Positions 1,165 through 64,000 of a stretch of 64,000 nt of DNA are shown here, piece by piece. Under the pieces are notes generated by a model that made no database searches, was not told the DNA's origin, and saw only the letters and a program-made list of their open reading frames with translations. Position numbers and translations under genes: made by a program. The stretch is from the IMG/VR virus record IMGVR_UViG_3300020220_000041. The stretch is one strand, 5' to 3'. How positions within the stretch are numbered: the stretch's first letter is position 1; each line of letters begins with the position of its first letter. The DNA comes from a virus.

Positions 1165-1169
1165 GTGGA

Positions 1170-1836: not shown

Positions 1837-1860
1837 GAGGTATGGGGCCGCAGGTCGGGT

Positions 1861-3057: not shown

Positions 3058-3081
3058 CTGGGCCTCCTGGCTCTGCGGATG

Positions 3082-9748: not shown

Positions 9749-9805
9749 TACGCGATTTCGGACAGCGGGTGACCCACCAGGTTGTGAGCGGTCCACTGGA
9801 AGCGT

Positions 9806-16008: not shown

Positions 16009-16034
16009 GGGTTCTCCTTACGGGGCCTGTTGCG

Positions 16035-16681: not shown

Positions 16682-16682
16682 C

Positions 16683-16910: not shown

Positions 16911-16983
16911 GTCAACCTCTACCCCTTTGTACGCGGCTGAAAGCGGATGGGGGAGTGAGGATGTCCCCCACTCCCCCAAGTCT

Positions 16984-28700: not shown

Positions 28701-30306
28701 ATTGCGGGAAACGACCGCATCCGGGTTGTTCGTCGGAATGTCCATTCCCGTGCTCGATCAAGAGAACGAAACGATCGCTCTCGATCGAGTTGCCTGCATT
28801 GAACGGGTGGACGGCAGCTTCATCGATCTCGATGTGTTGGATGCCAGCAACTTCTTCGCCAACGGCATCCTGACTTCCAACAGCATCTACGAGTTCCGTG
28901 CGGCGGACCCCGAGGCGTTCATCGACATGAGCGAACTCGTGGCGGGTGGGGCCGGGTTCAAGACCGAGGTGCTGAAGACCAACTACCGGTCGGGGCAGTT
29001 GATCGTGGAGGCGGCCAACCGGCTCATCTCCTACAACACCAAGCAGATCCCGATGACCTGTGCCGCGAACCCACAGCGCGTGGACCGGGGTGGCATCGAG
29101 GCGGTCAACTTCGCTCCGGTCGAAGGTCGGGACATGAGTGCCCCGGCCGAGTGGCTCGCCACCTCCATCGCCGAGACGATGGAGGAAGGACGTGCGGGGG
29201 CCAAGGGCTACGACGCCTTCGGGGTGGGGCTGCGGTCCAACGCCGAGGCATACACCTACGGCATCGAGCTTCTGAAGAAGGGCATCCCGTTCCGCTCCAA
29301 GGCCAACTTCTTCGGCGACCCGACCACCAAGGCGCTGTTGCACTGGCTCACCATCGCCGATGAGGGTGTTGGTGGGAGTGTGGACCGGGTCAACGAGGCG
29401 GTACTGGGTGCCCGCAAGGCTCCAGCGTCGAAGCTCGGGGACAAGTTCGAGGAGATCCTGACCCAGCGGGCCACCGGGAACTACCTGACCTGGCTTCAGG
29501 ACAACTGGACCGAGGTGTACGGCTCTCGGGGCGACTGGGCGATGCTGGTTCGGTCCTTCGTGGACAACCTGCTGGCGGTCGCCGGGATGAAGGGCGGAGC
29601 CTCCGAACAGGTGCTCGAGACGATCCTCGACCTCACGGGGCACGACGGTCGGTCGGTCCGCCAGGTGCTCGTCGACCGGGTGTCCGAGGATGAGGAGGCC
29701 ATCGCCGAGCTTCGGGCCGAGTCCCCCACGGGCACAGTCACGGACGAGGAGATCGAGTCGATGGCGTTCGCGCCCATCGCTCCTCTGAAGGGTCTGTTGG
29801 GTGCTCGGGCGGACCTCAGCGAGGCGATGAAGTACGTCCGGCAGCTTCAGTCCGCGAACGAGAAGCTGGCTGCGGACGACGACCCCGACAACAAGAAGGC
29901 TCGTGAGCCCGCCGTCACGCTGGGCACGATGCACTCCTGGAAGGGCCTCGAAGTCGAGAACATGTACATCCCCTTCGTCGGCGGCCGGTTCCCCCGGTTC
30001 GATGCGGACGAGGAGGATCTGGCCTCCGAGCGTCGTCTCGCCTACGTGGCGGTGACTCGCGGTGAGAACCGGGTCGTGGTGATGAACATCCCGACGGTGC
30101 GTCGGACGAAGCAGGGAGCCGTCACCCAGACGAGCCAGTTCGTCGGCGAACTGTGCATCCCTCCGGCGGTGGACAGTCCATTCAGCGCGGGAGATGAGGA
30201 CGCCGAGCAGGAAGTGCTGCGGCTCGAGGAGCGGATGAACCGAACCGCGTCCTACCTCTCGGACGAAGCCATCTCGGCCTACCTCTCGGGCCAAAAGGGG
30301 CGGTGA
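25774..30306 (+). CDS. UvrD/PcrA-like superfamily 1 helicase with ~280-aa N-terminal extension, interrupted by an intein
   Basis: Motif I AIIAAGAGSGKTATL, motif II ALVDEAQDLN, and motif III split as GDDKQ|C...N|SIYEFRAAD. Total 1510 aa. Confidence 0.7.
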   Translation: MKSSTNRVASRWMQAENTDEPSESVGDVSPGAFVDLMAFFQAVAAYRALKGDEDPQTRRAAPLVRRFQSDLVAGANRYFAPLTDDTAFAGLRNEVRTLTRGTRGLDHASEQAAALRKILWTLHPKPQVVREVFSDSRSYTAVMRLAALAATDSAGSLLNSVASLTPASRLQLTRKWIRDAAEAANVAPSKVETVLSDAENARHLGEDLHTVEVQLATADPVSQRAADLQVEKQAIIDQIEKVVADSPSPAVVLSAAASATTQPQDYATATAKRSRLSPDQERAMMARGKAIIAAGAGSGKTATLASKVAYHVNELGVPPGAVIATSFSRKSAAELRRRIAKYGADIPDSASTGFGTTHSVAGKLLREYGGGGRNGMKSYQQTDLVRLAMEQVQMVGPGVAPPPPTSLFDVSSDAPVGIKFRDAIQMAFDRRHKLDPWSKGFIESFYNPSDQWYARTMRATGNLTNPHGLSDKQREIVKKVFGRLGINYSPTTDPGLAPAQTQPAPRVAAKDKNKGLREKYKFFSQPANEWFNLGLELVEEDGQGNKKPIPTGFFKNAISKFKGRAVSPSEAWALSNGSPEAAVYAAYEWLKGSKGETDFQGLGDFDDVLLDVSKMLLSSPRVRQQVQSRFKVALVDEAQDLNRAQHLMFGLITGFVDPAKVPNIATAKKMGELAKDDGSMTADTYCFIGDDKQCVEANSLVETQNGPRRVGDLAPGDEVLAYRNGKVLLQAVRHVVPSSWTWGYKVTMESGQTLTMSPNHKLWATEPQTEDGQVAVYLMYRKDMGFRVGITNKGKVGSEEDYLNSYGGRVFLEKAERLWVLDICSSREEALLTETDLSLTYGIPTTVFNGEHRDLNQDRINTIFQKHGKNGGRLLEERNLSFDLPHWMSQSYTKHGRDRHTLQFLAHSTKGSQVAMEWVGDKFDKVLQDVSFNITGERRRLRRWFGNYREGLAHAEEVARRTGANLSYRMATPEGTLRETTASGLFVGMSIPVLDQENETIALDRVACIERVDGSFIDLDVLDASNFFANGILTSNSIYEFRAADPEAFIDMSELVAGGAGFKTEVLKTNYRSGQLIVEAANRLISYNTKQIPMTCAANPQRVDRGGIEAVNFAPVEGRDMSAPAEWLATSIAETMEEGRAGAKGYDAFGVGLRSNAEAYTYGIELLKKGIPFRSKANFFGDPTTKALLHWLTIADEGVGGSVDRVNEAVLGARKAPASKLGDKFEEILTQRATGNYLTWLQDNWTEVYGSRGDWAMLVRSFVDNLLAVAGMKGGASEQVLETILDLTGHDGRSVRQVLVDRVSEDEEAIAELRAESPTGTVTDEEIESMAFAPIAPLKGLLGARADLSEAMKYVRQLQSANEKLAADDDPDNKKAREPAVTLGTMHSWKGLEVENMYIPFVGGRFPRFDADEEDLASERRLAYVAVTRGENRVVVMNIPTVRRTKQGAVTQTSQFVGELCIPPAVDSPFSAGDEDAEQEVLRLEERMNRTASYLSDEAISAYLSGQKGR
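27853..28881 (+). other. Intein (343 aa: Cys1 ... terminal Asn, +1 Ser) inside UvrD motif III
   Basis: The host motif GDDxQSIYxFRGA is broken between Q and S. The insert starts CVEANS and ends ANGILTSN. Its size allows an endonuclease domain. Confidence 0.6.
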
Positions 30307-38110: not shown

Positions 38111-38146
38111 TTTGTTATACGCGGCCGGAGAGTCAAGCTGAACCTC
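38111..38146 (-). promoter_or_regulatory. Conserved promoter-like motif: AGGTTCAGC-N14-GCGTATAACAAAGCGAGGAG
   Basis: Full copy. Confidence 0.45.
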
Positions 38147-38585
38147 ACTTGTAGTCGATCTTGGGGATCTCTCCGCCGTCAGAAGGCTCAAAACGACGCT
38201 TGAGCTTCTCATAGAGGAAACGTGCGTAGTTGTCCGAAAGGCTCTTGAAGCGACCTCGAAGTTTCACGGCCATGTCCACGCGGTTGTCCACCTCGTTTCC
38301 ACGAAGGAGATGCTCGGGGTTGGCACAGGAGGGGTTGTCGCAGAGGTGGAGGATGGTGTCCGCTGGAGTGAGCTTCACCCCGTAAACCACCTCATAGACG
38401 ACGCGATGGACATAGAAAGTGCCTTCGGCGAGTCCGATCACGCCTTGCCCGCCCCTAGATTTTGACTTTGCGCCTTTCCAAACCCAACAGTCCCCTTCGG
38501 GCACATCCCAATTCAGTCCGAGCCAGAGCTTCACCTCCAACGGCACCCCGCGTTCCTTGTTCGGCAGCAGTTCCTTGTCCGGCAT
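38145..38585 (-). CDS. HNH endonuclease
   Basis: HLCDNPSCANPEHLLRGNEVDN (HNH_3). Confidence 0.65.
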   Translation of the reverse strand: MPDKELLPNKERGVPLEVKLWLGLNWDVPEGDCWVWKGAKSKSRGGQGVIGLAEGTFYVHRVVYEVVYGVKLTPADTILHLCDNPSCANPEHLLRGNEVDNRVDMAVKLRGRFKSLSDNYARFLYEKLKRRFEPSDGGEIPKIDYK

Positions 38586-38728
38586 GAACCCTCCCCACAA
38601 GAAACTTTATCAATCTGATAACGAACCTTGTGGTGTGTTACCCCTGCTCCCGCGAAAACGGGCGTTTTCCCGTTCTCGGACGCAGGCACGGAAGATGCTT
38701 TGAGGGGAGGCAAGGAGGTCTACAGACC

Positions 38729-39518: not shown

Positions 39519-40418
39519 TCAAGCGGCTTCGGCGTTCTGCTCCTCTTCTTCGTCTTCCGCACCCGCGTTCAGGATGAGGTCAACTGCCTGCTGTGCCGCC
39601 CGAGCGGCCCCAAACACTGCATACTTGTCCCCTCGAAGCACCTTCAACCAGTGGGCCAGGTAGTTCGGGTGTTGCAGATCACCCTCAACTCCGAGATGAG
39701 CACACAGGAAGGCCGCGCCGATTTCGGCCACCAGTTCCTCCATCGCGTAGGCATCCGAGCCGAACCTGTTCTTGAGGTCTCGGTTCAACCTGCCTTCGGC
39801 TCCAGTCCAGTGGAGCGTTTCGTGCGCCCGGGTCGCCAAGTAGTTCTCGATCGTGTGGAACTGCTCGACGTTGGGGAGGCGAATGCAGTCCTCGGCCGGG
39901 GAATAGCAGGCGTGATCACCACCGTGACGGACATCAGCCCCCACAGCTTCGAGTACCGTCATCGCTTCCGTGTGGGTGCCCGCCAGGTGGATCGAAGGGG
40001 CGACTTCCCCCACATCAGCAGGCAGACCTTCTACTTGTTCCCGGTTAAAGACAGTAAAGACGCGGAGGAGCGGGATCTTCTTGCCCGTCTCGACGCCCTC
40101 GACCTTTTCGGGGATGAACTGCCAGTAGACGATCTTCGTGCCCTTCTCGCCCTTGCGGACGTTCGCACCGAGATCCTTGGCCTGGTTGAAGGTGTACCAG
40201 CGGGCGTCGCTGTAGCCCGCGATGGCGAGCAACCAGATGTTGAGGCCGTTGTAGTGCCGACCCGACTTGCCGTTGCGGGGCATGCCGTTGATGCCCATGG
40301 ACTTCCAGGGCTTCGACCACTCCCCGGGGCCGGCTTCGAGGGCCGCGACGATGCGGTCGGTCACGTCCTGGTACCAGTCGTTCTTGGGGGCGGTGGTGGT
40401 CTTGGTGCTGCGGGCCAT
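39519..40418 (-). CDS. ardC: ArdC-like antirestriction protein
   Basis: N-terminal ssDNA-binding region (KPW...NGxxYxGxN...) plus a C-terminal zincin HExxH (ATRAHETLHWTGA). Confidence 0.7.
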   Translation of the reverse strand: MARSTKTTTAPKNDWYQDVTDRIVAALEAGPGEWSKPWKSMGINGMPRNGKSGRHYNGLNIWLLAIAGYSDARWYTFNQAKDLGANVRKGEKGTKIVYWQFIPEKVEGVETGKKIPLLRVFTVFNREQVEGLPADVGEVAPSIHLAGTHTEAMTVLEAVGADVRHGGDHACYSPAEDCIRLPNVEQFHTIENYLATRAHETLHWTGAEGRLNRDLKNRFGSDAYAMEELVAEIGAAFLCAHLGVEGDLQHPNYLAHWLKVLRGDKYAVFGAARAAQQAVDLILNAGAEDEEEEQNAEAA

Positions 40419-45181: not shown

Positions 45182-45946
45182 ATGAAGAACGACTCCCTGG
45201 GCGACCGCATGAAGCGGTACGAGTTGGCTGGACGACAGCTTCTTGTGCCTCGAACCCCGGTCATCGCGCGCATCGACGGTAGGGCCTTCCACACCTTCAC
45301 GAAGGGGTGTGCTCGTCCCTACGACGAGGATCTGCACGCCTGTATGTGGGAAGCAGCCAAGGCGGTTGCGGCCGACATCGCGGGTTGCCGGCTGGCCTAC
45401 GTCCAGTCGGACGAGATCAGCCTGCTCCTGGTGGACTACGAGTCGAACGCCTCCCAGGCGCACTTCGACTACGAGGTGCCGAAGCTGACCTCGACGGCGG
45501 CGGCCACGGCGTCCGTGACGTTCCTCGTCGAGTTCCTCAACCGGTTCCCGGACCGTCGGGACCGGCTCATGTCGAAGCGGGGGCTCCCGACGTTCGACGC
45601 GAGGTTCTACAACGTTCCTCGAGAGGATGTGGACAACTACTTCCTGTGGCGACAGCGGGACGCGGAGCGGAACTCGCTGACGATGCAGGCCCAGGCGCAC
45701 TACTCCCACAAGGAACTTCACGGGAAGTCTCGTGCGGAGAGGCACGACCTCTTGCACGCCAAGGGCATCAACTGGAACGACCTCCCCACTCCTCGGAAGC
45801 GGGGGGTGTGCGTGGTCCGCGAGACCTATCAGAAGGGGGAGGGCCTGCGCTCTCGGTGGACTGTGGATGAGGACATCCCGATCTTCTCGACCCCCGAAGG
45901 CCGTCAGTACCTCGAACGCTTCGTGAATCCCCCTGCTTCTTCGTGA
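45182..45946 (+). CDS. Thg1-like protein (tRNA-His guanylyltransferase family, 3'-5' nucleotide addition)
   Basis: VIARIDGRAFHTFTKGCARPYDEDL and AYVQSDEISLLL match the Thg1 catalytic carboxylate motifs. Confidence 0.65.
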   Translation: MKNDSLGDRMKRYELAGRQLLVPRTPVIARIDGRAFHTFTKGCARPYDEDLHACMWEAAKAVAADIAGCRLAYVQSDEISLLLVDYESNASQAHFDYEVPKLTSTAAATASVTFLVEFLNRFPDRRDRLMSKRGLPTFDARFYNVPREDVDNYFLWRQRDAERNSLTMQAQAHYSHKELHGKSRAERHDLLHAKGINWNDLPTPRKRGVCVVRETYQKGEGLRSRWTVDEDIPIFSTPEGRQYLERFVNPPASS

Positions 45947-48651: not shown

Positions 48652-49326
48652 TCAGGAGAACGCCCGGAACGTCACCGAGATCCGCCGCTTCTTGAACCGT
48701 GCAAAGTGGGGGACCTCGTGTGTCACCGCCAGGTTGGTCTCCCACGGCAGTATGACCACGTCTCCGTGCCCCACCTCCAAATCGAAGCACCCTCCAGGAG
48801 CCCGGAACGGCCGTAGCCGGAACACTCGCTCTCCTCCAAGGGACATCGTGACGATCGGGGAGCCGGGGATCAGTCCGATCGTGGAGTCCCGGTGTTTCCC
48901 GATGTAGTGCTCGAGTCCCGGGTCGTACCAGTTCAACAGGGGCGCATCCAACCTCGGATGAAGTCCCTGTGCCCACTCCACGAACGGCCCCAAGGCCGCC
49001 GGAGTCGGCAACGCCTGGTTCCGCTGTCCCGAGAACACGTAGTCGCGGTGGTACGCCTGCTGCCACCTCGGAAGGTTGGTCGGCGTGCTGTACATCATGA
49101 TCGACGGGAAGTGGTCGGGATGAAGGTCCCACAACTCGTCGAAGTCGCACCCAGCCAACTCGTCGGGGATCCGACCCACCCACACCTTGTGGCCGTTCTG
49201 CACCTGGACGGCCCGGAAGTCTTTGTTGGTCCGCGCGACAGGCCAGGGCCGTTCGCCCCCAGGTTCGGGTGGCCTCAACCCAGCAAGCTGCTCCAGAAAG
49301 TCGTCTTCCACAACACTCTCCTCCAA
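48652..49326 (-). CDS. AlkB-like 2OG-Fe(II) dioxygenase
   Basis: YDPGLEHYIGKHRDSTIGLIPGSPIVTMSLGGERVFRL ... GDVVILPWETNLAVTHEV (HxD...H and the RxS context). Confidence 0.6.
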   Translation of the reverse strand: MEESVVEDDFLEQLAGLRPPEPGGERPWPVARTNKDFRAVQVQNGHKVWVGRIPDELAGCDFDELWDLHPDHFPSIMMYSTPTNLPRWQQAYHRDYVFSGQRNQALPTPAALGPFVEWAQGLHPRLDAPLLNWYDPGLEHYIGKHRDSTIGLIPGSPIVTMSLGGERVFRLRPFRAPGGCFDLEVGHGDVVILPWETNLAVTHEVPHFARFKKRRISVTFRAFS

Positions 49327-49354: not shown

Positions 49355-49392
49355 ACGGTTCAGGTTTCTCCCCCCTGCGCGTAGGTGGGGGA
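49355..49392 (+). promoter_or_regulatory. Conserved promoter-like motif: CGGTTCAGG-N14-GCGCGTAGGTGGGGGAGG
   Basis: Full copy upstream of the macro-domain gene. Confidence 0.5.
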
Positions 49393-49405
49393 GGAAGGAG
49401 CAGTC

Positions 49406-50002
49406 ATGCGTGTCACTGTCGTTCGAGGCGACATCACCCAGCAGTCCGACGTGGACTGCATCGTCAACGCGGCTCACCCGAGCCTGGAAGGTGGAGGTGG
49501 GGTCGACGGGGCCATCCACCGTGCGGCCGGACAGCGGCTGCTCGAGGAGTGCATCACCTTCCCCGAAGTGCCAGGCGACAAGGTGGGTCCGAGCACCCGG
49601 TTCGTCCTGACCCGTGACGCCCCCTGGCGTACCCGCAAGATCCGGTGCGAGGTCGGGGACGCGGTGATCACGGGGGCCTATGCCCTGTCTCCCATCCAGC
49701 ACATCGTCCACACGGTCGGGCCGCTCTACGACCCGTCGCAGCCGGTGGAGATGGCGAACCTCCTGGCCACGGCCTTCGCGAACTCCTTGAAGCTCGCCCA
49801 GGAGAATGGCTGCAAGCGGGTGGCGTTGCCCGCCATCTCGTGCGGCGTGTTCCGGTTCCCCCTGGACGAAGCCGCCAAGATCGCGATGATGGTGGCCCGC
49901 CGTCCCGAGTGGACGTTCGACGAGATCCGGTTCGTTCTGTTCGAGGAGCCGGTCTACACGACGTTCTCCGAGGCTCTGAGTTCTGTGGAAGGTGCGTCGT
50001 GA
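49406..50002 (+). CDS. Macro-domain protein (ADP-ribose binding/hydrolase)
   Basis: IVNAAHPSLEGGGGVDGAIHRAAG. Confidence 0.7.
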   Translation: MRVTVVRGDITQQSDVDCIVNAAHPSLEGGGGVDGAIHRAAGQRLLEECITFPEVPGDKVGPSTRFVLTRDAPWRTRKIRCEVGDAVITGAYALSPIQHIVHTVGPLYDPSQPVEMANLLATAFANSLKLAQENGCKRVALPAISCGVFRFPLDEAAKIAMMVARRPEWTFDEIRFVLFEEPVYTTFSEALSSVEGAS

Positions 50003-53323: not shown

Positions 53324-53947
53324 ATGCCTTGTCCGAAATGCGGTGCGGATCGACCTCACTTTGCCAAGGGTCTGTGCAAAAGCTGCTACAACGGCGAGCA
53401 CAAGATCGCGGTGCCGCAGTCGTTGTCAGATCCCGCCTTGGCACAAAGATTTTGGTCGAAAGTCCAACACGGTTCCACGGACGCCTGCTGGCCGTGGCTG
53501 CACTCAACCACCAAGAAAGGGTACGGGAAGTTCAACTTCAACGGGAAAGGGTGGATGGCCCACCGGCTGGCGTGGGCCATCCACCACCAACGCGAACCCC
53601 TGCCCGACGAAGCCGTGTGTCATCAGTGCGACACCCCCGCTTGCTGCAACCCGACCCACTTGTGGGTCGGGTCTCGTAAGGACAACCTTCGCGACATGGT
53701 GGCGAAAGGCAGGCACGGAGCCACCAGACCCCGCGCCCTTCTCTTGCGGCTTATGGGCTTCGTTGATTCCAGGGGTTTAACAATCCCCGAACCCCTCCGT
53801 ACCGACCTTCAAACCTACTTGAAGGACTCCGCCCGGTGGCAGAACATCAAGGCTTCTTCGGCAACCCCTGTAGGAGCGGATTCCGAGGCTCCGATTCCGA
53901 CGGAGTCGGGGGCGGAGGAGGGGGTGGGGGAAACTGCGTCCGGCTGA
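53324..53947 (+). CDS. HNH endonuclease
   Basis: CHQCDTPACCNPTHLWVGSRKDN, with an N-terminal CPKCG...CKSC. Confidence 0.65.
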   Translation: MPCPKCGADRPHFAKGLCKSCYNGEHKIAVPQSLSDPALAQRFWSKVQHGSTDACWPWLHSTTKKGYGKFNFNGKGWMAHRLAWAIHHQREPLPDEAVCHQCDTPACCNPTHLWVGSRKDNLRDMVAKGRHGATRPRALLLRLMGFVDSRGLTIPEPLRTDLQTYLKDSARWQNIKASSATPVGADSEAPIPTESGAEEGVGETASG

Positions 53948-55528: not shown

Positions 55529-56140
55529 TCATCGGCGATCCGCTTCTCGAACCACTTTCCGACACGACTCGATGAACTCTTCCACGCTTTGCGTGCCTTT
55601 CATCTTGTTGCAGATAAAACAAGCTGAAACACAGTTGTCCTCGAAGTAATCCTTGGAGCTATCTACCCGATCGAGCCCCAGAGTCTCATTTGGGCCGCCA
55701 CAGTAAAAACACGGCTTACCCACTACAAGTCTTTCCCAAACATCTTCGGGGAGGGCCGTTCGACCAGTGGTGCGGGTAGACCCCACATACGTCAAATAAC
55801 GGCCGTGTTGGGTTTTCCGGGAAAGACTCGAAGCCCGGTTCATACAAGCACGACACCACGAGTGTCGTCCATCCAATGATGAGGACAACACAGGGAAATC
55901 CGTCATTAGTTGCTCGACCGCACAACTACGGCACGTCTTCCTCCCTGTTTGAAGCCTTGTGTGCGCTGCTTCTCGCTGAGCCGTTTCAAGAAGCGCAGCT
56001 TTCGGGGGGCGGGTCTCCCGTTTGTATGCCGCAACGCAGCTTTTGCACCAGTAGTGGAGGGGCCGACCTCGCGACCCCTTGCAAAAGTCGGAGGCGGGTA
56101 GGGTCTGGCGACAACGATGGCATTCGACTTGTTCAGACAT
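55529..56140 (-). CDS. HNH endonuclease (AP2-HNH type)
   Basis: LGLDRVDSSKDYFEDNCVSACFICNKMKG. It lies on the minus strand inside the plus-strand block. Confidence 0.65.
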   Translation of the reverse strand: MSEQVECHRCRQTLPASDFCKGSRGRPLHYWCKSCVAAYKRETRPPKAALLETAQREAAHTRLQTGRKTCRSCAVEQLMTDFPVLSSSLDGRHSWCRACMNRASSLSRKTQHGRYLTYVGSTRTTGRTALPEDVWERLVVGKPCFYCGGPNETLGLDRVDSSKDYFEDNCVSACFICNKMKGTQSVEEFIESCRKVVREADRR

Positions 56141-56154: not shown

Positions 56155-56766
56155 GTGACCGAACGAAGCGTAAAGATTTTTGCGATCAGCGGGAAGAAGC
56201 GTCACGGCAAGGATTCTGTGGCTCGCGTCCTCAACGAGTGGGGCGTTCACCGCCTGGCTTTCGCGGACCACCTGAAGTGGCTGGCGATGAAGACGTGGGA
56301 CCTGTCGTTCGAGCAGGTGTACGGGGATGACCTGAAGGAAGTGGTGGACGAGCGTTGGGGGCTCACGCCTCGGTTCATGCTTCAGCAACTCGGCACCCAG
56401 GTTGGCCGCAACATCCACGAGATGACGTGGGTGCGGAAGGCGCTCGACACCATCGAGAAGGCCGCGAGGGGTGAGCCAGTCATCCTGCCGAACCTCGAGA
56501 CGCGGAAGTTCGAGGAGACCGAGTTCGCCGAAGGGTGGGCAGACCGGTGGTGCATCCCCGACTGCCGTTTCCCTGGGGAGGCGGATGCGGTCAAGGCGAG
56601 GGGGGGCATCGTCATCAAGGTGGTGCGGCCGTCCCTCGTGTCGAACGACACGCACGCCAGCGAGACCGAGGTGGACAACGTGAAGGAGGACTACCTCGTC
56701 ATGAACGACGGGTCGATCGCCGACCTTCACGCAGGGATTCAAGCCATCATCGACCGGGTGCTGTGA
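56155..56766 (+). CDS. Deoxynucleoside monophosphate kinase (T4 gp1-like)
   Basis: IFAISGKKRHGKDSVA (P-loop). GTG start. Confidence 0.6.
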   Translation: MTERSVKIFAISGKKRHGKDSVARVLNEWGVHRLAFADHLKWLAMKTWDLSFEQVYGDDLKEVVDERWGLTPRFMLQQLGTQVGRNIHEMTWVRKALDTIEKAARGEPVILPNLETRKFEETEFAEGWADRWCIPDCRFPGEADAVKARGGIVIKVVRPSLVSNDTHASETEVDNVKEDYLVMNDGSIADLHAGIQAIIDRVL

Positions 56767-57323
56767 TGCGGCGGGTCATCCTCGACGTGGACGGGGTGTC
56801 GGCGGACTTCGTGACGCACACCCTCCGGACGCTGGCCGCTCTGGGCGGCCCTCAGATGCAGCACGACGACATCGGCACCTGGGACATCTTCGGCTCGGTG
56901 CCGAGGGAGTGGGAGGACCGCGTGGTGGCGGAGTGGCATCGCCCCGGCTGGTGTGCGGGGATTCCGCTCTACGACGGGGCGCGTGAAGCCATCATGGCCT
57001 TGCGCGAGGTCGCGGAGGTTGTGTTCGTCACGACCGCGATGGAGGACGCTCCTCACTGGATGTGGGAGCGAGATCGGTGGCTCCGGCACCGGCTCAACGC
57101 GGGTGCTCGGGACATCATCTTCGCTGCCTCGAAGAAGCACATCGCTGCAGACCTGTTCATCGACGACAAGGCCAGCAACGTCAGCGAGTGGCACCGGGCT
57201 CACCCGGAGTCGGTTGCCATCCTGTGGGATCAGCCGTACAACAGGCAAGAACGCTTGCCCGACGGCGTGATTCGCTCACGTTCTTGGGAGCAGATTGTCC
57301 AGTTGGCGTCACGTACCGTGTAG
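56766..57323 (+). CDS. HAD-superfamily 5'(3')-deoxyribonucleotidase
   Basis: ILDVDGVSADF (DxDGV), with DD near the C-terminus. ATG overlaps the upstream TGA. Confidence 0.6.
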   Translation: MRRVILDVDGVSADFVTHTLRTLAALGGPQMQHDDIGTWDIFGSVPREWEDRVVAEWHRPGWCAGIPLYDGAREAIMALREVAEVVFVTTAMEDAPHWMWERDRWLRHRLNAGARDIIFAASKKHIAADLFIDDKASNVSEWHRAHPESVAILWDQPYNRQERLPDGVIRSRSWEQIVQLASRTV

Positions 57324-57341
57324 GGAACGGCGGGAGGAGCG

Positions 57342-57536
57342 GTGTTCAACAACAGCATTCAACTCGCCGACGGGTCGGTGGTCGAGGAGTTCAAGATCGA
57401 CGGAGAGTCCGTGTCGGGGACGCGCATCCTTCCGACGGGCCAGCGGGTCCGGTTCTGGACCAGCAGGGCCAACTGGGACGAGATTTGCCGGGAAAACGCC
57501 CGTCGTTCCCAGTCTCCCCAAGCGCCCAACCCGTAG
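57342..57536 (+). CDS. Small hypothetical protein
   Basis: 64 aa. Confidence 0.35.
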   Translation: MFNNSIQLADGSVVEEFKIDGESVSGTRILPTGQRVRFWTSRANWDEICRENARRSQSPQAPNP

Positions 57537-57579
57537 TCCGGTCGGAACCCTATACCTCTCGGAGAGTGGAGGAACGCCA

Positions 57580-57963
57580 GTGAGGCCATCATCCACCCGA
57601 GTCGCGTTCCGGCACCTCATCGCCGCCAAGCCGGGCTCACCCGAAGACCTCCTCCGGATCTGGTTGGGTGAGGTCGGGAACTTCGTGGCGCAGATGGTGG
57701 GTGGTTCCTCGAGGCTGGAGTTCAAGAAGGGCCACATCGTCGTCGTGGATGTCCGGAACCCCGAGATGGTGGAGCGCATCGGCATCCGGTTCGAGGGCTA
57801 CAAGATGGTCCTGTCCCTCCATCACCAACTCGGCGCGGACGTGGGTGAGGTGGACTCCCTCGACTTCCCCATCTTCATGAAGATGCCGCCCCGTGAAGCC
57901 GCGACTTGGGCGGTAGAGAACACTCACGGGAGGGCACAGGTGGCCCTCTTCAAGAGGGGATGA
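57580..57963 (+). CDS. Hypothetical protein
   Basis: GTG with a GGAGAGTGGAGGA RBS. Confidence 0.45.
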   Translation: MRPSSTRVAFRHLIAAKPGSPEDLLRIWLGEVGNFVAQMVGGSSRLEFKKGHIVVVDVRNPEMVERIGIRFEGYKMVLSLHHQLGADVGEVDSLDFPIFMKMPPREAATWAVENTHGRAQVALFKRG

Positions 57964-58217
57964 TGCGGCGTCGAACCTTCCTGGTGCAAGACCTCACCAC
58001 CCTGACCCTCCAACTGGTCGAGGCAGACGGCACTCTGCTGTGCAGCATCTCCTTCAGTTGGGCGGATGCGGGCGTGGTAGTGGTGTTGCCACCGGGGAGC
58101 TTGAGGCACATGGGGTCGTTCCAGGATGTGTTCAACCTGCTCATCCGGTACCCGGAATCGACCAGAGATCAAGTCGTTGCTTCGCTTCCCCGCTACGGGT
58201 ACACGTCCGCGCAATAG
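57960..58217 (+). CDS. Hypothetical protein
   Basis: ATGA overlap. 85 aa. Confidence 0.4.
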   Translation: MMRRRTFLVQDLTTLTLQLVEADGTLLCSISFSWADAGVVVVLPPGSLRHMGSFQDVFNLLIRYPESTRDQVVASLPRYGYTSAQ

Positions 58218-58307
58218 GGTTCTCGACTTCGCCGTACTTCTGGTCCGTGTCCGGGGGGTCGGTTTCCCCTCCTCCCCGTGTAAAGACGGGCAGGAGGCTG
58301 AACAGCG

Positions 58308-58949
58308 ATGCTCGAGTGGATCCAGGGCTGGTACAATTGGCCGTTTCTCCTATCGCTTTTCGTCGGGCTCGGGCTCGCAACGCTCTCGGTGCTCGGCTTC
58401 TCCAAGGACGGCGGTGTAGACCTGGACGGAGACGGAGTCCCGGACATCGGGGCTCCAGGCAGGCATGAGCCTGGTCACCTCTCGATGGAGGGGTTCGGCT
58501 GGCTCGGCTTGGGCAAGGCTCCGCTGTCGGTGCTCCTCCAGACGCTCACCCTGACGTTCGGCCTCGTGGGCTTGTTGGTCAACGCCTTCGCCCATGATGT
58601 TGTCGGCGACTGGGACGTTCTGGCGTTCCCGCTGTCGTTCGGGGTGGCCGCCGTCGGTTCAATGGCTGCCACCCGGGGCGTCGCCTCTCTGTTCTTCCGG
58701 TTCATGCCGCCCGAGCGGGCCACGGGCGCACAGCCCGGTGAGTTCGTCGGCAAGAGCGGCAAGGCCGCATCCGGCATCACCCTTTCGTTTGGGCAAGTGC
58801 AGGTCGAGGAGGAGAACAGCAACGCTCTCCTCAACGCTTGTGTTGCCCCTGGAGCCTCCGAAATCGAACGCGGCACGGAGGTTCTGTTGGTTGGCTACGA
58901 CAAAGAACGCCGCATTTACCTCGCAATCTCCATCCCTTCGGAGACGTGA
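58308..58949 (+). CDS. NfeD-like membrane protein
   Basis: Three TM segments, then a soluble beta-rich C-terminus (GEFVGKSGKAASGITLSFGQVQVEEENSNALLNA...). It sits immediately upstream of the flotillin gene. Confidence 0.5.
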   Translation: MLEWIQGWYNWPFLLSLFVGLGLATLSVLGFSKDGGVDLDGDGVPDIGAPGRHEPGHLSMEGFGWLGLGKAPLSVLLQTLTLTFGLVGLLVNAFAHDVVGDWDVLAFPLSFGVAAVGSMAATRGVASLFFRFMPPERATGAQPGEFVGKSGKAASGITLSFGQVQVEEENSNALLNACVAPGASEIERGTEVLLVGYDKERRIYLAISIPSET

Positions 58950-58955
58950 AGCATC

Positions 58956-61031
58956 ATGGACGCAATGCCTACCACCCTGATCATGCTGGCTGTCGCAGCC
59001 GTTGCCGTGATCGTGTTCATCGTGAGCACGATGGCTGCCATCAAGGCGTTCTACAAGGTCCCCAACGCGGACGAAGCCCTCGTCAAGACGGGCGGCAAAG
59101 AGCCCGTGGTGAGCACGGGCGGTGGCCTGTGGGTCATCCCGATGTTCCACAAGGTCACGAAGGTCAGCCTCCGTGCCGTGAAGATCCCCATCAACCGCAC
59201 GGGTGATGACGCCCTCCCGACGGCGAACAAGATCCCCGCCGAGATCATCGGTGAGTTGATCGTCCGCGTGGACTCGTCGAACACCGCGCACATCATCCTC
59301 GCGGCCCAGGCGTTGGGCTCCGAGTCCGAGTCCACGGGCCACATCGAAGGCCGGATGAGCCAGATCATCCAGCAGCAGGTGGACAGCCTCGTCACCGACG
59401 CTCTCCGTACCGCCGCCTTCAAGAAGGCGTTCGAGAAGCTCAACTCCGAGAAGAAGGAGTTCGCCGACGAGGTGACCCAGCTTCTCGGTGAAGACCTCGC
59501 GAAGCTCGGCCTCGTGCTCGTGGCCGTGACCATCCCGAGCATCAAGCAGGGTGCCTTCACGAAGGACGCTGGTGACGTGTTCGCGGCCGAAGGTCAGCGC
59601 AACGTCGCCGAGACGGTCGCCAAGAACAAGCAGGAGACCAACCTCATCAACCGCGAGGCCGAGGTCAAGATCCAGGAGCAGGACGTGGCGGCCCGGAAGC
59701 GCCAGCTTGCGTTGGACCTCGAGCGGAAGCAACTCGAAGCCGACCAGACCCGCCAGGTGTCCGAGTACGAGGCCACCCAGGCGACCGAGACGAAGAAGGC
59801 CGTGTTGGCCCAGGAACAGGCACAGGCCGTGGCATCGGCCACCCAGGCCGAGCAGGTCGCCAAGGCGGAGATCGCTCGCGACCAGTCCGTGAAGGCGGCC
59901 GAGATCGCCCGTGACCAGACCTTGGCCACCCAGCAGGCCAAGGCCGCTGCGGAACAGAAGAAGGCCGAGGAGGAGGCCGCCCGGATCAAGTCCGAGGCCG
60001 AGATCGCCCGTCAGAAGGCGGTCGAGGCGGCGGCCATCGAGAAGGACCAGACCATCAAGGTCGCCGACCAGAAGCGTCAGCAAGCGGTGTCCGAGGCCGA
60101 GATCGCCCGTGAGGTCGCCGTCGCACAGCGGAAGGCCGAGGAGGCACAGGCTCGGGCGACCCAGGCGACTGCGGAAGCCGAGAAGCAGAAGGCCGAACAG
60201 GCCATCGTGACGGTCGAGGCCGAGGCGAAGGCCGACCGTGAGAAGCGCGTCGTCACCATCAAGGCCGAGGAGGAGGCCACCAAGGCCAAGGTCGCTGCCG
60301 ACCGGGACGCCTACGTCCAGACGAAGAAGGCGGAAGCCGATCGCGACGCGGCCCAGAAGCGGGCCGAGGCGGCCAAGGTCGAGGCCGAAGGAAAGGCCCA
60401 GGCGGTCACCGCCGAAGCGGATGGTCGGGCTCGGGCGTTGAAGGCGGACGCCACCGGTAAGGCCGAAGCGGCCAAGTCCGAGGCGGAGGGTCGTGCCGAG
60501 GCCCTGAAGCTCCAGGCGCAGGCCGAAGCGGAGGCCCGTACCATCAAGGCGAACGCGGAGTCCGAGGCGGCCGACAAGGAAGCCAAGGCGAAGATCGCCC
60601 TGGCGGGGGCCATCCTCGAGGAAGGCAAGGCCCGTGCGGAGGCCGAGCGCCTGCTCACCGAGGCCAAGAACGCCGTCTCGAAGGAGACGATGATCCGCGA
60701 CGTGTCGCTGAAGCTCGTCGAACAGGCTCCGGCCATCGTCCGCGAGTTCATGGCTCCGATCACGAAGGTCTCCGACGTGAAGGTGCTCCAGATCAACGGG
60801 CTCGGTGGCGGCGACGGGGATGGGTCGAACCTCCCGGCGACCATCATGGGTGCGGGGCTGGCTGCCTCCGGGGCTCTCCCGCTCGTGAAGGAGGCCATGA
60901 AGGGGCTCGTCCAGAACCCCGAGGTGCAGGAGATCACCAGCATCCTCGGGAACGTCGCCAAGGACACCCTCCGTGGTGCGGCCTCGGCGGTGCGCGAGGG
61001 TGCGGGTCACTCTCCCGACAACGGAGCTTGA
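58956..61031 (+). CDS. Flotillin-like SPFH/band-7 protein with long Ala/Glu/Lys coiled coil
   Basis: N-terminal TM, then an SPFH core (ALVKTGGKEPVVSTGGGLWVIPMFHKVTKVSLRAVKIPI), then ~400 aa of AEAK-type heptads. Confidence 0.7.
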   Translation: MDAMPTTLIMLAVAAVAVIVFIVSTMAAIKAFYKVPNADEALVKTGGKEPVVSTGGGLWVIPMFHKVTKVSLRAVKIPINRTGDDALPTANKIPAEIIGELIVRVDSSNTAHIILAAQALGSESESTGHIEGRMSQIIQQQVDSLVTDALRTAAFKKAFEKLNSEKKEFADEVTQLLGEDLAKLGLVLVAVTIPSIKQGAFTKDAGDVFAAEGQRNVAETVAKNKQETNLINREAEVKIQEQDVAARKRQLALDLERKQLEADQTRQVSEYEATQATETKKAVLAQEQAQAVASATQAEQVAKAEIARDQSVKAAEIARDQTLATQQAKAAAEQKKAEEEAARIKSEAEIARQKAVEAAAIEKDQTIKVADQKRQQAVSEAEIAREVAVAQRKAEEAQARATQATAEAEKQKAEQAIVTVEAEAKADREKRVVTIKAEEEATKAKVAADRDAYVQTKKAEADRDAAQKRAEAAKVEAEGKAQAVTAEADGRARALKADATGKAEAAKSEAEGRAEALKLQAQAEAEARTIKANAESEAADKEAKAKIALAGAILEEGKARAEAERLLTEAKNAVSKETMIRDVSLKLVEQAPAIVREFMAPITKVSDVKVLQINGLGGGDGDGSNLPATIMGAGLAASGALPLVKEAMKGLVQNPEVQEITSILGNVAKDTLRGAASAVREGAGHSPDNGA

Positions 61032-61032
61032 G

Positions 61033-61797
61033 ATGACGGTGGGGACGCCGCACGCAACCCAGGAGAGCCAGAAGGGGTGGCCCCTTCTGGCTCCGCTCAC
61101 TCCCTCCGAGGTGGCCTCGATCCTGGAGGAGCTTGCGGACGCCCTGGAGAGGCGTCCCCACCTTCAGAACGACCCTGCGTTCATGGGCTCGATGCGGCTG
61201 GCTCTGACGGCCGCATCGGCCTCCAGGGTCCACGTCGAGAGGGTGTACGAGAGTGCTCCGCCTGTTGAGGTGGTTCGCGAAGTGGTCCGCGAGGTGCCCG
61301 TCTTCGACGCCACGAGCCTGACCACGCTCAACCTCGAAGTAGAGCGGCTCAAGCTGGCTCTGACCTCCGCCCGTTCTGAGTTGGAGGAAGCCAACATGGA
61401 ACGGGTGGGCGCACAGGTTCGGCTCGAGGAGGTCGCGACCAAGCTGAAAGACGCTCGGGCCAAGATCGCCAAGGTCATCCAAGAACACACCGACCGCGTC
61501 GAGCAGCTTCAGGCGGAAGCTGTGGCCCAGTGTACGGACAGGGACACCCGGCTGGCGACGACACGAGAACAGGTGGCCAAGCTGGAGTCCAACCGCGACC
61601 AGGTGGTCAAGCTCCTTCAAGCCGCCCAGTTCTCGGGCCAAAGCGCGAAGTACCAGTTCCAGAAGACCCGCAAACCCATCCCGTGTTGTCCTATCTGTGG
61701 CGGGCTCACCACGGATGCGGGTCTGACCGCCGATAAAGATGTCGGCCATCGAAAGAACTGCTGGATTAGCGGGGCGTTGCTTGCACTGACCCGGTAG
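61033..61797 (+). CDS. Coiled-coil protein with C-terminal CCPICG motif
   Basis: 254 aa. The stop of the flotillin gene abuts its ATG. Confidence 0.5.
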   Translation: MTVGTPHATQESQKGWPLLAPLTPSEVASILEELADALERRPHLQNDPAFMGSMRLALTAASASRVHVERVYESAPPVEVVREVVREVPVFDATSLTTLNLEVERLKLALTSARSELEEANMERVGAQVRLEEVATKLKDARAKIAKVIQEHTDRVEQLQAEAVAQCTDRDTRLATTREQVAKLESNRDQVVKLLQAAQFSGQSAKYQFQKTRKPIPCCPICGGLTTDAGLTADKDVGHRKNCWISGALLALTR

Positions 61798-61832
61798 ACC
61801 TTTGATGTCCTCTGTTTGTAGAGGAGGCGCAC

Positions 61833-62090
61833 ATGGTCATCGACATGAACCACCCTCTGGCCCCGTACTGCGTTGTGCTGCGGAAAGGGAAGCCAGTCGG
61901 GTTCGTGACCCGGATCGACACCCACACCATGACCTTGTGGCGTACCGGTCCCGAGTTGACTGGTGACACCCCCGGTTCGCAGGCGGTGTACGCGGAGAAG
62001 TTCGACGAGGTTCGGTACAGCCCGGACCTTCCGACGTACCTAAGGGTGCTTCTCCCGAAGGGCTGGAAGCCGGTCACCATCATCAACTGA
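61833..62090 (+). CDS. Hypothetical protein
   Basis: GAGGAGG RBS. 85 aa. Confidence 0.5.
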   Translation: MVIDMNHPLAPYCVVLRKGKPVGFVTRIDTHTMTLWRTGPELTGDTPGSQAVYAEKFDEVRYSPDLPTYLRVLLPKGWKPVTIIN

Positions 62091-62126
62091 CCTCGTTCGG
62101 GTAAAGCGTGTCCAGGAGGGCGCGCG

Positions 62127-63164
62127 ATGTCCGAAGTCGATGTCAGTCGTGTGCGTGCGGTGGTGTACGGCCAGGCGATCGGGGACGCCCTCGGGTTGCC
62201 GGTCGAGTTCCAGTCGGCGAAGGCCATCCAAGGCCGGCTCGAGGTGTGGAACGACGAGTGGCCGAAGGTGTACCGGGACACGAACCGGTCCACCTCCAAG
62301 TGGAAAGCCGGCGAATGGAGTGACGATACCGAGCAAGCCATCTGCCTTCTCGATGCCTACCTGGAGGGGGTCGAGACGGGCCGGGCTCCCTCGGACAGCA
62401 TCGACGTGAGGCTCGTGTCGAAGCACTTCCTCAACTGGGGGACGACGAACGGGCGGGGCATGGGGAATCACACGGGGAAGGTGTTCGAGCACTTCCTGTT
62501 CCCACTCGAACCGCTCACGGCGTCGCTGGACATCTGGGAGCAGTCGGGCCGACAGGCAGCTCCCAACGGGGCGGTGATGAGGACGGCCTACATCGGCATC
62601 GTCCGACCCTGGGACCTCGACTGGACCTCCGAGGTAGCGGCCGAGTGTGCGGCCGTGACTCACGCGGATCCCCGCTGCAAGGCGTCCGCTGTGGCCGTGA
62701 GCGTCGCCATCGCGGAGATGGTGATGGGGGCTCCCGTGTCGGAGGCCATCGCCCATGCGGCGGAACGGGCATCCAAGCACGACCCCACCGTCCACGCCTG
62801 GATGCTCGACAAGGACATCGCCGAGTTCAACCTCGACGAGGGCCTCGACACCTACAAGAAAGGCAACCCTTTCCCGCCCATCGGCTTCACCTACAAGTGC
62901 CTCGGGGCCGCGTTCTGGGCTCTCCGCCAGGCGCAACTGTTGACCCCGCTTCGGATGTCTTCCCGGGAACGCTTCCGCAGGGCTCTCGAGGGGGTCATCT
63001 TGGCGGGCGGGGACACCGACACCAACGGGGCGGTCGCAGGAGCCTTGCTGGGAGCCTACCTGGGGATGGACGGGTTGCCTCCGGTGCTCGCTGAAGGGCT
63101 TCAACCACGCATCACCCTGGACACCAGGTTGATGAAGCTGCTGGCGGTCCACAAGCGTCGGTAG
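62127..63164 (+). CDS. ADP-ribosylglycohydrolase (ARH/DraG family)
   Basis: VVYGQAIGDALGLPVEF is the N-terminal signature. 345 aa. Confidence 0.7.
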   Translation: MSEVDVSRVRAVVYGQAIGDALGLPVEFQSAKAIQGRLEVWNDEWPKVYRDTNRSTSKWKAGEWSDDTEQAICLLDAYLEGVETGRAPSDSIDVRLVSKHFLNWGTTNGRGMGNHTGKVFEHFLFPLEPLTASLDIWEQSGRQAAPNGAVMRTAYIGIVRPWDLDWTSEVAAECAAVTHADPRCKASAVAVSVAIAEMVMGAPVSEAIAHAAERASKHDPTVHAWMLDKDIAEFNLDEGLDTYKKGNPFPPIGFTYKCLGAAFWALRQAQLLTPLRMSSRERFRRALEGVILAGGDTDTNGAVAGALLGAYLGMDGLPPVLAEGLQPRITLDTRLMKLLAVHKRR

Positions 63165-63182
63165 GGTGACCCAATTCCCGAG

Positions 63183-63935
63183 GTGCCTGTGTCACCCCAC
63201 GTCTGTCCAGTCTGCAATGGTCGTCAGCGGGTTGCCCGCTCCTTCTACGAAGAGGTGTCCGGTCCGGATGAGGAGGTCCCCTGTCGCTCGTGCCATGGGA
63301 CAGGGGTGGTCTGGCCGGTGTCCTCGGAACAGCGAGCGGACCTCGACCTGGTGGTGGGCTTCGCGTCCACCGTCACGGCGACCGACCCCGACCTGTGGTG
63401 CGGGGCTGACCCCGTCTCGTTCGAGATCACGCCCGATTTCAACGCGGGCATCTCATTGGGCACGGTGGACATGCAGCCGTCCACGAACGTGCTGATCTAC
63501 CACGCGACAGAAGGCCACGAGTTCAGCCTCCGGGACTGCCGCATCGAGGTCGGAGACGCGGGAGGAGGCATCGTCGTCCTCGGGAACCTGGGCGTGACCA
63601 CCATCGAGGGCAACTACGTCGAGCGGGTCGACGGCCTGCAGGGGATTCGGATCCACCCACGAGTGCCGGAGGTACACCCCGAGCGGAAGCGGGTGCTCGA
63701 CCTCCTGGCGACGTTGCCCGAGGACATGCCCCTGTTGGTTCTGACCCCCAGGTCGGTCGTGGAGATCGACACCGCCAAGGACTACCGGGGGCAGATGCAG
63801 AGGGGCAGCGTTCAGCAGCGGGGCGTTGAGGCCCTGGTCAACCGCATGAACGACTACCAGGGAAGCCGTGGCAAGTACCCGGTCGAGGTGTCCCCGCGTC
63901 TCGCGGGGCTTCCCGTCTCGGAAGGAGATGAGTGA
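63183..63935 (+). CDS. Hypothetical protein with N-terminal Zn-ribbon
   Basis: CPVCNG...CRSCHGTG. Confidence 0.5.
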   Translation: MPVSPHVCPVCNGRQRVARSFYEEVSGPDEEVPCRSCHGTGVVWPVSSEQRADLDLVVGFASTVTATDPDLWCGADPVSFEITPDFNAGISLGTVDMQPSTNVLIYHATEGHEFSLRDCRIEVGDAGGGIVVLGNLGVTTIEGNYVERVDGLQGIRIHPRVPEVHPERKRVLDLLATLPEDMPLLVLTPRSVVEIDTAKDYRGQMQRGSVQQRGVEALVNRMNDYQGSRGKYPVEVSPRLAGLPVSEGDE

Positions 63936-64000
63936 TGTCGATCCCGCCCCCCGATGTCCCCTACGACCTCCCGCAGCCCGTGACTGCCCTCAACGTCCGC
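63935..64000 (+). CDS. Hypothetical protein, partial
   Basis: ATG overlapping the upstream TGA. The ORF runs off the window. Confidence 0.35.
   Translation, partial: MSIPPPDVPYDLPQPVTALNVR

Follow-up and report, generated by a model that had tools for sequence, protein, structure and literature searches.

A 64,000-nucleotide (nt) stretch of viral DNA, IMG/VR record IMGVR_UViG_3300020220_000041 (the whole of which is called the window here; GC content 63%), was found to carry a three-gene module in which a flotillin gene is preceded by a yqiJ-like partner gene and followed by an orphan gene for a coiled-coil protein with a CCHC motif. Taken jointly, the identity of the flotillin and its carriage by a phage were highly probable. 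The best explanation of the module, in which our confidence is only a little better than even, is a phage-made flotillin cage system that would stabilize the inner membrane of the host, or partition it, while a long infection lasts. A sequence-only reading of the same DNA had delimited the first two open reading frames (ORFs) exactly, at 58308-58949 and 58956-61031 on the plus strand. Its spacing of 7 nt was also right, six bases (58950-58955) lying between the TGA and the next ATG and the flotillin starting 7 nt on; the third gene (61033-61797) was not in it. The features of the module were as follows (aa, amino acids; AF2, AlphaFold2; TM, transmembrane):

58292..58297, plus strand: Shine-Dalgarno sequence AGGAGG, read from the sequence, 10 nt 5' of the yqiJ-like ATG
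58308..58949, plus strand: yqiJ-like gene, NfeD2-type flotillin partner, 213 aa, ATG start
58329..58703, plus strand: predicted yqiJ-like membrane domain with three TM helices (AF2 model, hydropathy, alignment A2)
58755..58931, plus strand: predicted yqiJ-like C-terminal five-stranded beta (OB-fold) domain, aa 150-208 (AF2 model)
58956..61031, plus strand: flotillin gene, YqiK/FloT type, SPFH2, 691 aa, ATG start
58968..59054, plus strand: N-terminal hydrophobic membrane anchor of the flotillin, about aa 5-33 (hydropathy)
59064..59627, plus strand: SPFH/Band_7 domain of the flotillin, aa 37-224 (PF01145)
59631..60725, plus strand: Ala/Glu/Lys/Gln-rich helical (coiled-coil) region of the flotillin, aa 226-590 (composition, Pro/Gly map)
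60567..60902, plus strand: C-terminal domain of the flotillin, aa 538-649, including the Gly-rich motif NGLGGGDGDG (PF15975)
61033..61797, plus strand: third gene of the module, orphan protein, 254 aa
61687..61761, plus strand: C219-x2-C222 ... H239-x3-C243, putative zinc knuckle of the third protein (alignment A3)

The three genes run in the same direction with spacers of 6 and 1 nt. A 90-nt intergenic gap separates the preceding gene from the AGGAGG site and the yqiJ-like gene, and therefore the module probably starts at this point. At the other end, a single base lies between the flotillin stop codon and the ATG of the third gene, which appears to be translationally coupled to the flotillin. 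Codon-position analysis gave the pattern of real genes for the yqiJ-like and flotillin genes, with a GC fraction of 0.79 and 0.89 at third positions versus 0.46 and 0.43 at second positions, respectively. An antisense ORF of 813 aa (58659-61100), which the codon-position gene caller did not select, was read as a reverse-strand shadow of the GC-rich and Ala-rich coding strand. No sigma-70-like promoter was found in 56500-64000, and no terminator-like site around the module rose above shuffle expectation.

The assignment of the second protein to the SPFH/flotillin family, proposed in the sequence-only reading, held in the profile search. Band_7 (PF01145) matched at aa 37-224 (E 1.3e-16, 61.6 bits versus a Pfam cut-off of 23.6) and Flot (PF15975) at aa 538-649 (E 7.1e-18, 65.3 bits versus a cut-off of 27), the latter over profile positions 1-120 of 124. 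The anchor at about aa 5-33 was the sole hydrophobic segment of the protein (Kyte-Doolittle maximum 2.86). The protein combined what characterizes prokaryotic flotillins, namely PF15975 after a long coil, an N-terminal anchor and an NfeD2-type partner encoded directly upstream. The helical region at aa 226-590 consisted of 27% Ala, 15% Glu, 11% Lys and 9% Gln, and neither Pro nor Gly occurred in aa 214-478; an AEAK coiled coil had been announced for this protein and was present, but with a size of about 365 aa and not the ~400 aa given. Gly residues stood at positions 479, 490, 501, and 512 (window 60390-60491), an exact 11-residue period that falls in four AEGKA/ADGRA-like repeats of an otherwise Gly-free helix. 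This hendecad-like periodicity at aa 479-512 may mark a change in coil geometry.

Homologues of the flotillin at 45-95% identity were all annotated with PF01145 and PF15975. An end-to-end alignment was obtained with an Acinetobacter "flotillin family protein" of the YqiK type (27% identity), whose coil is about 120 aa shorter, the extra residues of the window protein being scattered as gaps through the coil. A sequence search of solved structures detected only the human flotillin-1 cages 9bq2 and 9l3g (E 2e-5), and the helical region aligned to the coiled coil of human flotillin-1. The score against the NCBIfam FloT equivalog NF058507 (43.8 bits versus a cut-off of 700) was far under threshold; hence, the protein is a flotillin and yet no orthologue of Bacillus subtilis FloT. 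Such end-to-end alignment with cellular YqiK-type flotillins also answered the concern, raised beforehand, that the coil might identify a tape-measure or scaffold protein. That the long Ala/Glu/Lys helix belongs to these or to any other virion structural protein is extremely improbable: the low-complexity helical composition is the only point in its favor, whereas the helix is flanked by Band_7 and Flot domains, the protein carries an N-terminal TM anchor and has an obligatory NfeD-type partner, and no PHROG structural family matched. A tape-measure or scaffold identity was refuted by the profile searches. No PHROG family of any kind matched the flotillin or the YqiJ-like protein.

YqiJ is the operon partner of the Escherichia coli flotillin YqiK. 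The first protein of the module matched Pfam YqiJ_N (PF21001, E 3.3e-9), but the Pfam NfeD model PF01957 gave no match at E<=0.01; its homologue on a related contig of 391 kb showed a weak match to PF01957. Hydropathy placed TM segments at aa 11-32, 71-95, and 104-122, and the AF2 model (built on 14 homologues; mean pLDDT, the per-residue confidence score, 77.5) placed helices at aa 8-28, 73-99, and 103-132, followed by a five-stranded beta domain at aa 150-208. Both agreed on the three TM segments that had been proposed for this ORF. The predicted C-terminal domain superposed best on the solved NfeD OB domains 3wwv, 3cp0, 2k14, and 2exd, and only this fold comparison worked, a PDB sequence search with the protein having returned no match. 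Accordingly, the earlier description as NfeD-like stood for fold and architecture, in the NfeD2/YqiJ sense (YqiJ_N, OB fold), but not for the PF01957 sequence model. The flotillin partners YuaF and YqiJ have been classed as NfeD homologues of weak conservation (NfeD2), in which a soluble all-beta domain follows three hydrophobic stretches (PMC2636767), and three N-terminal hydrophobic helices with a soluble all-beta OB-fold domain were also predicted here. No protease family, such as the ClpP-type domain of the long NfeD1b forms, matched the 213-aa protein; it belongs with YuaF and YqiJ among the short NfeD forms that are not proteases.

Additionally, the loop between the first and second TM segments of this protein (aa 34-46; window 58407-58445) was acidic and contained D38-L-D40-G-D42-G43, a motif of the DxDxDG type that was kept in most phage-borne homologues (alignment A2). 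The spacing D38-x-D40-x-D42-G43 resembles the DxDxDG calcium-binding loop, and the loop may be a putative Ca2+-binding site.

The third protein belonged to no Pfam or PHROG family and gave only coiled-coil noise in PADLOC (E>=4e-4). A word-indexed homologue search returned the protein itself only, and its relatives were reached by an exhaustive HMMER search of 1.84 billion representatives, in which 41 clusters matched at E<=1e-3. The members of this family have 126-329 aa, most matches spanning the whole length. Among 36 members (alignment A3) the sole invariant columns were C219, C222, H239, and C243, the N-terminal region was conserved as well, and the coil varied in length. In the AF2 model (pLDDT 87.8) an N-terminal helical hairpin is followed by a single helix of ~105 residues and a small C-terminal domain of beta strands plus a helix, in which the CCHC residues are predicted to sit. 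After copies of the same contig had been merged, 16 distinct phage-like loci remained, of which 12 had the gene directly 3' of the flotillin; none of the 10 loci classed as cellular had it. Six of those 10 were plainly cellular by their neighbors (dehydrogenases, Ser/Thr kinases, P450, anthranilate synthase, and thrombospondin-repeat proteins), and L018-L021 were so classed from record titles and contig sizes only. The third gene, then, occurs only beside phage-borne flotillins, and its orphan product is a concrete new candidate for a flotillin interactor.

The exact flotillin protein was found in one JGI freshwater metagenome and two SRA assemblies. In related loci from genomes and metagenomes, a YqiJ-like ORF stood immediately 5' of the flotillin in every case (45/45). 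The same gene pair was present on contigs of 104, 244, 281, 310, 377, 391, and 640 kb, which include ENA ERZ13693046 NODE_17 (640,569 bp), Ga0114933_10000002 (391 kb), Logan SRR28285715_445 (377 kb), JGI Ga0491458_000088 (281 kb), and ERZ13692958 NODE_112 (244 kb). The related contigs were dense in short co-directional genes, mostly without a Pfam family, and encoded T4 rIIB, the gp30.3 family, RNA ligase, aminoacyl-tRNA synthetase, RF-1, Cpn10, and homing endonucleases. The 640-kb contig was syntenic with the window in the order DNMK - NT5C - ... - YqiJ - flotillin - third gene - ... - ADP-ribosylglycohydrolase. Furthermore, in one other well-supported phage lineage (L091, L092) the module lay 3-5 genes 3' of a T4-type rIIB. 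The sequence-only reading had called such pairs very rarely phage-borne, which was correct for sequenced isolates and for PHROGs, but not inside this uncultivated huge-phage group, where the pair was a conserved feature. A tblastn search of the flotillin against 50,697 GenBank phage records gave three weak partial hits confined to the SPFH region; lying in short or unannotated records, these were not counted as phage flotillins.

Some side observations were made on these and other elements. Distant partial matches to the SPFH region of the flotillin, at most 32% identical, occurred in 317 plasmid records (228 from Escherichia, 261 predicted conjugative); carriage of SPFH genes is therefore frequent among other mobile elements as well. 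A fusion of DFP (PF04127) and class II aldolase (PF00596) of ~515-573 aa was common to two divergent flotillin-carrying huge-phage contigs of 64% and 42% GC (L005 at 2898-4619 and L176 at 15799-17346), which suggests a common gene pool. The phage-like contig L010 (CANNIZ010000024.1) lay in a metagenome-assembled genome labeled "Proteobacteria bacterium," and one "uncultured Enterobacteriaceae" bin (CAYYHT01) held both the phage-like flotillin contig L017 and the Myxococcota-like cellular locus L014. These bins suggest mis-binning or mislabeling, and L017 and L014 are possibly a co-varying phage-host pair.

The gene content of the window was typical of a jumbo phage, with functions in replication, nucleotide metabolism and host takeover, homing endonucleases and a tRNA array. 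A dNMP kinase matched phrog_139 (E 6e-47), a MazG gene was present, and further PHROG matches were endonuclease VII (phrog_1035), HNH (phrog_1872), phrog_229, and phrog_1967. The features located in the window were the following:

935-1935, minus strand: six-tRNA array with Thr-TGT, Thr-GGT, two Thr-CGT, Lys-TTT, and Gln-TTG
6775-8439, minus strand: 554-aa ORF with a ThyX match in its C-terminal ~135 residues only (PF02511, E 4.5e-7)
14462-15538, minus strand: glutamine-synthetase-like protein (Gln-synt_N, Gln-synt_C)
20949-21566, plus strand: homing-type gene, HNH or endonuclease-VII-like
25774-30306, plus strand: UvrD-like helicase, 1510 aa
36500-37852, minus strand: class II aminoacyl-tRNA synthetase, Asp/Asn/Lys type (PF00152, E 3e-70; phrog_19509)
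38145-38600, minus strand: homing-type gene, HNH or endonuclease-VII-like
39519-40418, minus strand: ArdC-like anti-restriction protein (phrog_7245, E 9e-83)
45182-45946, plus strand: tRNA-His guanylyltransferase Thg1 (phrog_4717, E 8e-88)
48652-49326, minus strand: 2OG-Fe(II) oxygenase
49385-50002, plus strand: Macro-domain protein
53324-53947, plus strand: homing-type gene, HNH or endonuclease-VII-like
55529-56140, minus strand: homing-type gene, HNH or endonuclease-VII-like
62127-63164, plus strand: ADP-ribosylglycohydrolase (E 2e-63)

The ArdC-like protein was 45% identical to versions in Caulobacter jumbo phages of the phiCbK type, and the best phage match of the helicase was a 485-kb uncultured phage (LR745208.1). 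The only megablast match, in a search with the last 24 kb of the window, was Thg1 (79% over 114 nt) to the Burkholderia jumbo phage BcepSaruman. The four homing-type genes comprised two endonuclease-VII-like and two HNH genes, and GC was lower (0.59-0.61 versus ~0.64) around those at 38145-38600, 53324-53947, and 55529-56140. Four consecutive Thr tRNAs, with a duplicated CGT, were unusual; the Rfam scan of the window gave tRNAs only. The aminoacyl-tRNA synthetase and glutamine-synthetase-like genes are of translation and metabolism types known from huge phages. The UvrD N-domain match of the helicase spread 250 profile positions over ~417 residues, ~370 residues without a family lay between the N and C domains, and homologues in Bacillus phages are annotated as intein-containing; the helicase may carry an intein or other insertions. 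An ADP-ribosylglycohydrolase gene was also found a few genes 3' of the flotillin in L005, L007, and L095, and together with the Macro-domain and 2OG genes, which like it lie close to the module in the window, it may serve ADP-ribosylation counter-defense. No family was assigned to the N-terminal 400 aa of the ThyX-type ORF. The region 8400-9900 was low in GC (0.58), its codon-position statistics supported no long gene, a mechanical 454-aa ORF there (8384-9748) had no PHROG match, and Rfam detected no RNA family in it.

Several results weighed against a viral identity. A comparison of ~60 ORFs with PHROGs and ~20 with Pfam brought up no gene for a capsid, portal, terminase, or tail in the 64-kb window; precomputed Pfam lists of the related loci (~20-kb flanks) likewise held no virion gene, and tblastn of two orphan 447-aa ORFs revealed none. 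The window and the flanks may simply exclude the structural module. No relative emerged from pattern scans of IMG/VR, whether the query was the single protein or an alignment of 38 sequences, although such a scan needs exact back-translated peptide patterns and its absence of hits is no proof; the group may be missing from virus catalogues, or it may not be viral. In that case the window would be a fragment of a cellular chromosome, megaplasmid, or large extrachromosomal element with an ordinary cellular flotillin operon, and the placement of some related contigs (L010, L017) in bacterial bins would agree with this. We consider such a non-viral origin improbable. The homing HNH and endonuclease VII genes, dNMP kinase, Thg1, the tRNA array, and an ArdC-like protein closest to jumbo-phage versions speak against it, as do the best phage match of the helicase and the T4 rIIB and gp30.3 families of the relatives. 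Moreover, ~70-80% of the neighboring genes were without a Pfam family, short and co-directional, whereas truly cellular loci differed. Viral identity rests on gene content and synteny, and the claim of a phage-like genome in the sequence-only reading was supported indirectly, by the phage-typical genes and by relatives of 104-640 kb with rIIB and gp30.3. Phage identity was judged very likely.

Selection on the module was estimated against its closest relative, L095, as the ratio of non-synonymous to synonymous rates (dN/dS). Only this comparison was used, with dS of 0.3-0.7 and unsaturated, as synonymous sites were near saturation in the distant relatives. The ratio was 0.10 for the flotillin (95% aa identity), the lowest of nine neighboring genes, 0.14 for the yqiJ-like gene (85%), and 0.47 for the third gene (58%). 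These values indicate that the yqiJ-flotillin pair is kept under strong purifying selection in the phage.

In a bootstrapped neighbor-joining tree, the phage-like flotillins and the Myxococcota/deltaproteobacterial flotillins of ~50% identity grouped in a single clade (100% bootstrap). Its sister was a second Myxococcales group, and gammaproteobacterial YqiK (26-28% identity) stood far from the two. The window flotillin fell inside a 100%-supported clade of eight phage-like contigs, and elsewhere in the tree phage and cellular groups were well-supported sisters (100% and 97%). Since phage and cell clades interleave, the tree implies that the operon, that is, its first two genes as a unit, has been exchanged repeatedly between huge phages and Myxococcota-like cells. 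From this exchange we infer that Myxococcota are the most likely hosts.

The same interleaving, and the finding that the closest cellular homologues (~50% identity) are found among ordinary chromosomal genes of Myxococcota, yqiJ again preceding the flotillin, would also fit a host operon captured recently, which the phage would carry as a passenger ("moron") without any use for it in its life cycle. This is very improbable, given that the pair was retained across phage lineages at 45-70% flotillin identity and from 42% to 64% GC, that the flotillin was the most constrained of the nine genes compared, that its codon-position GC was the same as that of the rest of the window, and that a phage-specific third gene was acquired.

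With regard to function, the favored cage explanation would work as follows. The phage would produce its own flotillin in infection. As in the solved SPFH complexes, oligomerization through the long helix and the C-terminal domain would build a cage or dome against the inner membrane of the host, on its cytoplasmic side, with the YqiJ partner sitting in the membrane patch beneath. The enclosed microdomains would keep the host membrane and its proteins working through the long replication of a very large phage, possibly by holding membrane proteins folded, buffering fluidity, or aiding repair, or by keeping the membrane from failing too early under stress, on superinfection, or through abortive-infection effectors that target it. 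For the third protein, which evolves fast, a phage-specific role as adaptor or regulator is proposed, in which it would bind to the coil of the flotillin. SPFH proteins, including flotillin-1/2, use their coiled-coil and C-terminal regions to assemble membrane-attached cages, by which a microdomain is bounded (PMC11260169, PMC12624060); Staphylococcus aureus FloA-NfeD stabilizes unfolded proteins without ATP and is crucial for the survival of ATP-depleted bacteria (PMC11222466); and the B. subtilis SPFH protein YdjI recruits the membrane-repair protein PspA (PMC8581546). By analogy with these systems, a membrane-protective or membrane-partitioning role as such was rated somewhat short of even. 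A part in membrane integrity, lysis inhibition, or exclusion would be in keeping with the proximity of rIIB in L091/L092, through guilt by association only. The roles suggested in the sequence-only reading, namely membrane remodeling, superinfection exclusion, and lysis timing, are speculative, and no result contradicted them.

The cages might instead be a scaffold for phage-specific membrane-bound machinery rather than a general protection, for example as anchors of replication or assembly sites, as gates that control the entry of DNA (superinfection exclusion), or as timers of lysis through sequestration of holins or spanins, with the CCHC coiled-coil protein as client adaptor. A phage-only third gene that is tightly coupled to the flotillin and evolves fast, as expected if its product recognizes a lineage-specific partner, agrees with such a scaffold, and so do the vicinity of rIIB, a locus related to lysis inhibition and exclusion in T4, in the one other phage lineage and the enclosure of specific clients by SPFH cages, e.g., FtsH in HflK/C (PMC11260169). 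However, no candidate client gene was conserved beside the module, where the neighbors beyond the third gene varied by lineage, four phage-like loci had no third gene, and Pfam and PHROGs revealed no family of holins, spanins, or exclusion proteins in the vicinity. On balance, we regard this alternative as unlikely.

The membrane-stabilizing explanation has its own difficulties. The third gene is not obligatory, being missing from the phage-like loci L005, L093, L094, and L176. E. coli yqiK mutants showed no clear growth phenotype (unpublished data cited in PMC2636767), and the cellular role of the YqiK subfamily is itself obscure. PADLOC gave no match for the flotillin or the YqiJ-like protein, so that no link to known defense systems exists. 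The most far-reaching version, which we put forward as a rather unlikely one, is that a large uncultivated group of huge phages, probably on Myxococcota, would use a three-part flotillin system to armor or partition the host inner membrane, with virus-made cages acting against membrane-disrupting abortive-infection effectors or during lysis inhibition. If true, this would be a viral take-over of the bacterial "lipid-raft" organization, and the repeated flow of flotillin genes between phage and host would turn phages into vehicles of SPFH evolution.

Although flotillins and NfeD partners occur widely in bacteria, little is understood of what they do. A viral operon under strong constraint and with a third component of its own would imply a benefit within a single infection cycle, which would be a much sharper assay than cellular knock-outs. 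Membrane-microdomain organization would also be added to the host functions borne by huge phages (translation factors, tRNAs, chaperonins), and the interleaved phage/Myxococcota phylogeny provides a host hypothesis for the phage-like contigs of 100-640 kb.

Literature searches brought up no report of phages with a complete flotillin-NfeD operon. The protein families SPFH2 flotillin and NfeD2/YqiJ are known, as are SPFH-domain proteins in a few cultured phages. The conservation of the whole operon across a broad group of huge-phage-like genomes is new, and so are the orphan CCHC coiled-coil gene added in the phage versions and the evidence of repeated phage-host exchange. SPFH-domain proteins have been annotated in the cultured Xanthomonas phage X1 (PMC13384950) and Gibbsiella phage GIB1 (PMC13239085), and the GIB1 paper calls the reason for an SPFH gene in the phage genome unclear (PMC13239085). 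Unlike the window protein, those of X1 and GIB1 (a lipoprotein in GIB1) are described with neither a flotillin C-terminal domain nor an NfeD partner.

The E. coli yqiJ-yqiK and B. subtilis yuaF-floT(yuaG) operons (PMC2636767) resemble the module in gene order, the partner gene coming first and the flotillin second, and in domains, with three hydrophobic helices plus an OB domain in the partner and an anchor, Band_7, a coil, and Flot in the flotillin. Nevertheless, the window flotillin was only 26-28% identical to gammaproteobacterial YqiK and its coil is ~120 aa longer, and the module differs from both operons in being borne by a phage-like genome, in its third, phage-specific gene, and in having its relatives in a Myxococcota-associated subfamily. 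Closer to it are the chromosomal pairs of Myxococcota/deltaproteobacteria (CBDCGT010000001.1, 6.87 Mb; SBGP01000095.1), with 47-50% flotillin identity over the full length, 33-40% YqiJ identity, the same adjacency, and membership of the same 100%-supported clade; these differ in their cellular neighbors (dehydrogenases, Ser/Thr kinases, P450) and have no third CCHC gene.

Further likenesses concern SPFH modules of other subfamilies. S. aureus FloA-NfeD (PMC11222466) and E. coli QmcA-YbbJ (Tan et al. 2024, cited in PMC12624060) also pair an SPFH protein with an operon-encoded NfeD partner and offer a functional precedent in the ATP-independent stabilization of membrane proteins under stress (PMC11222466, PMC12624060). 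They are, however, cellular systems of the stomatin/FloA type (SPFH1/5 with NfeD1), whereas the window module belongs to the flotillin/YqiJ subfamily, and PDB sequence searches detected no direct match of the window proteins to them. B. subtilis pspA-ydjGHI (PMC8581546) is likewise a multi-gene SPFH module with membrane partners, there for the membrane-stress response; the analogy, which bears on a protective role, is functional only; the window has no PspA gene, and its third protein is soluble and unrelated. Finally, the human flotillin-1/2 cage (9bq2, 9l3g; PMC11260169) has the same layout of SPFH domain, coiled coil, and C-terminal oligomerization region. Human flotillins form heteromers and have no TM helix and no NfeD partner, whereas the phage flotillin has a TM anchor and a much longer helix; their cage, a right-handed helical barrel on the membrane (PMC11260169), serves as an architectural model for the phage protein.

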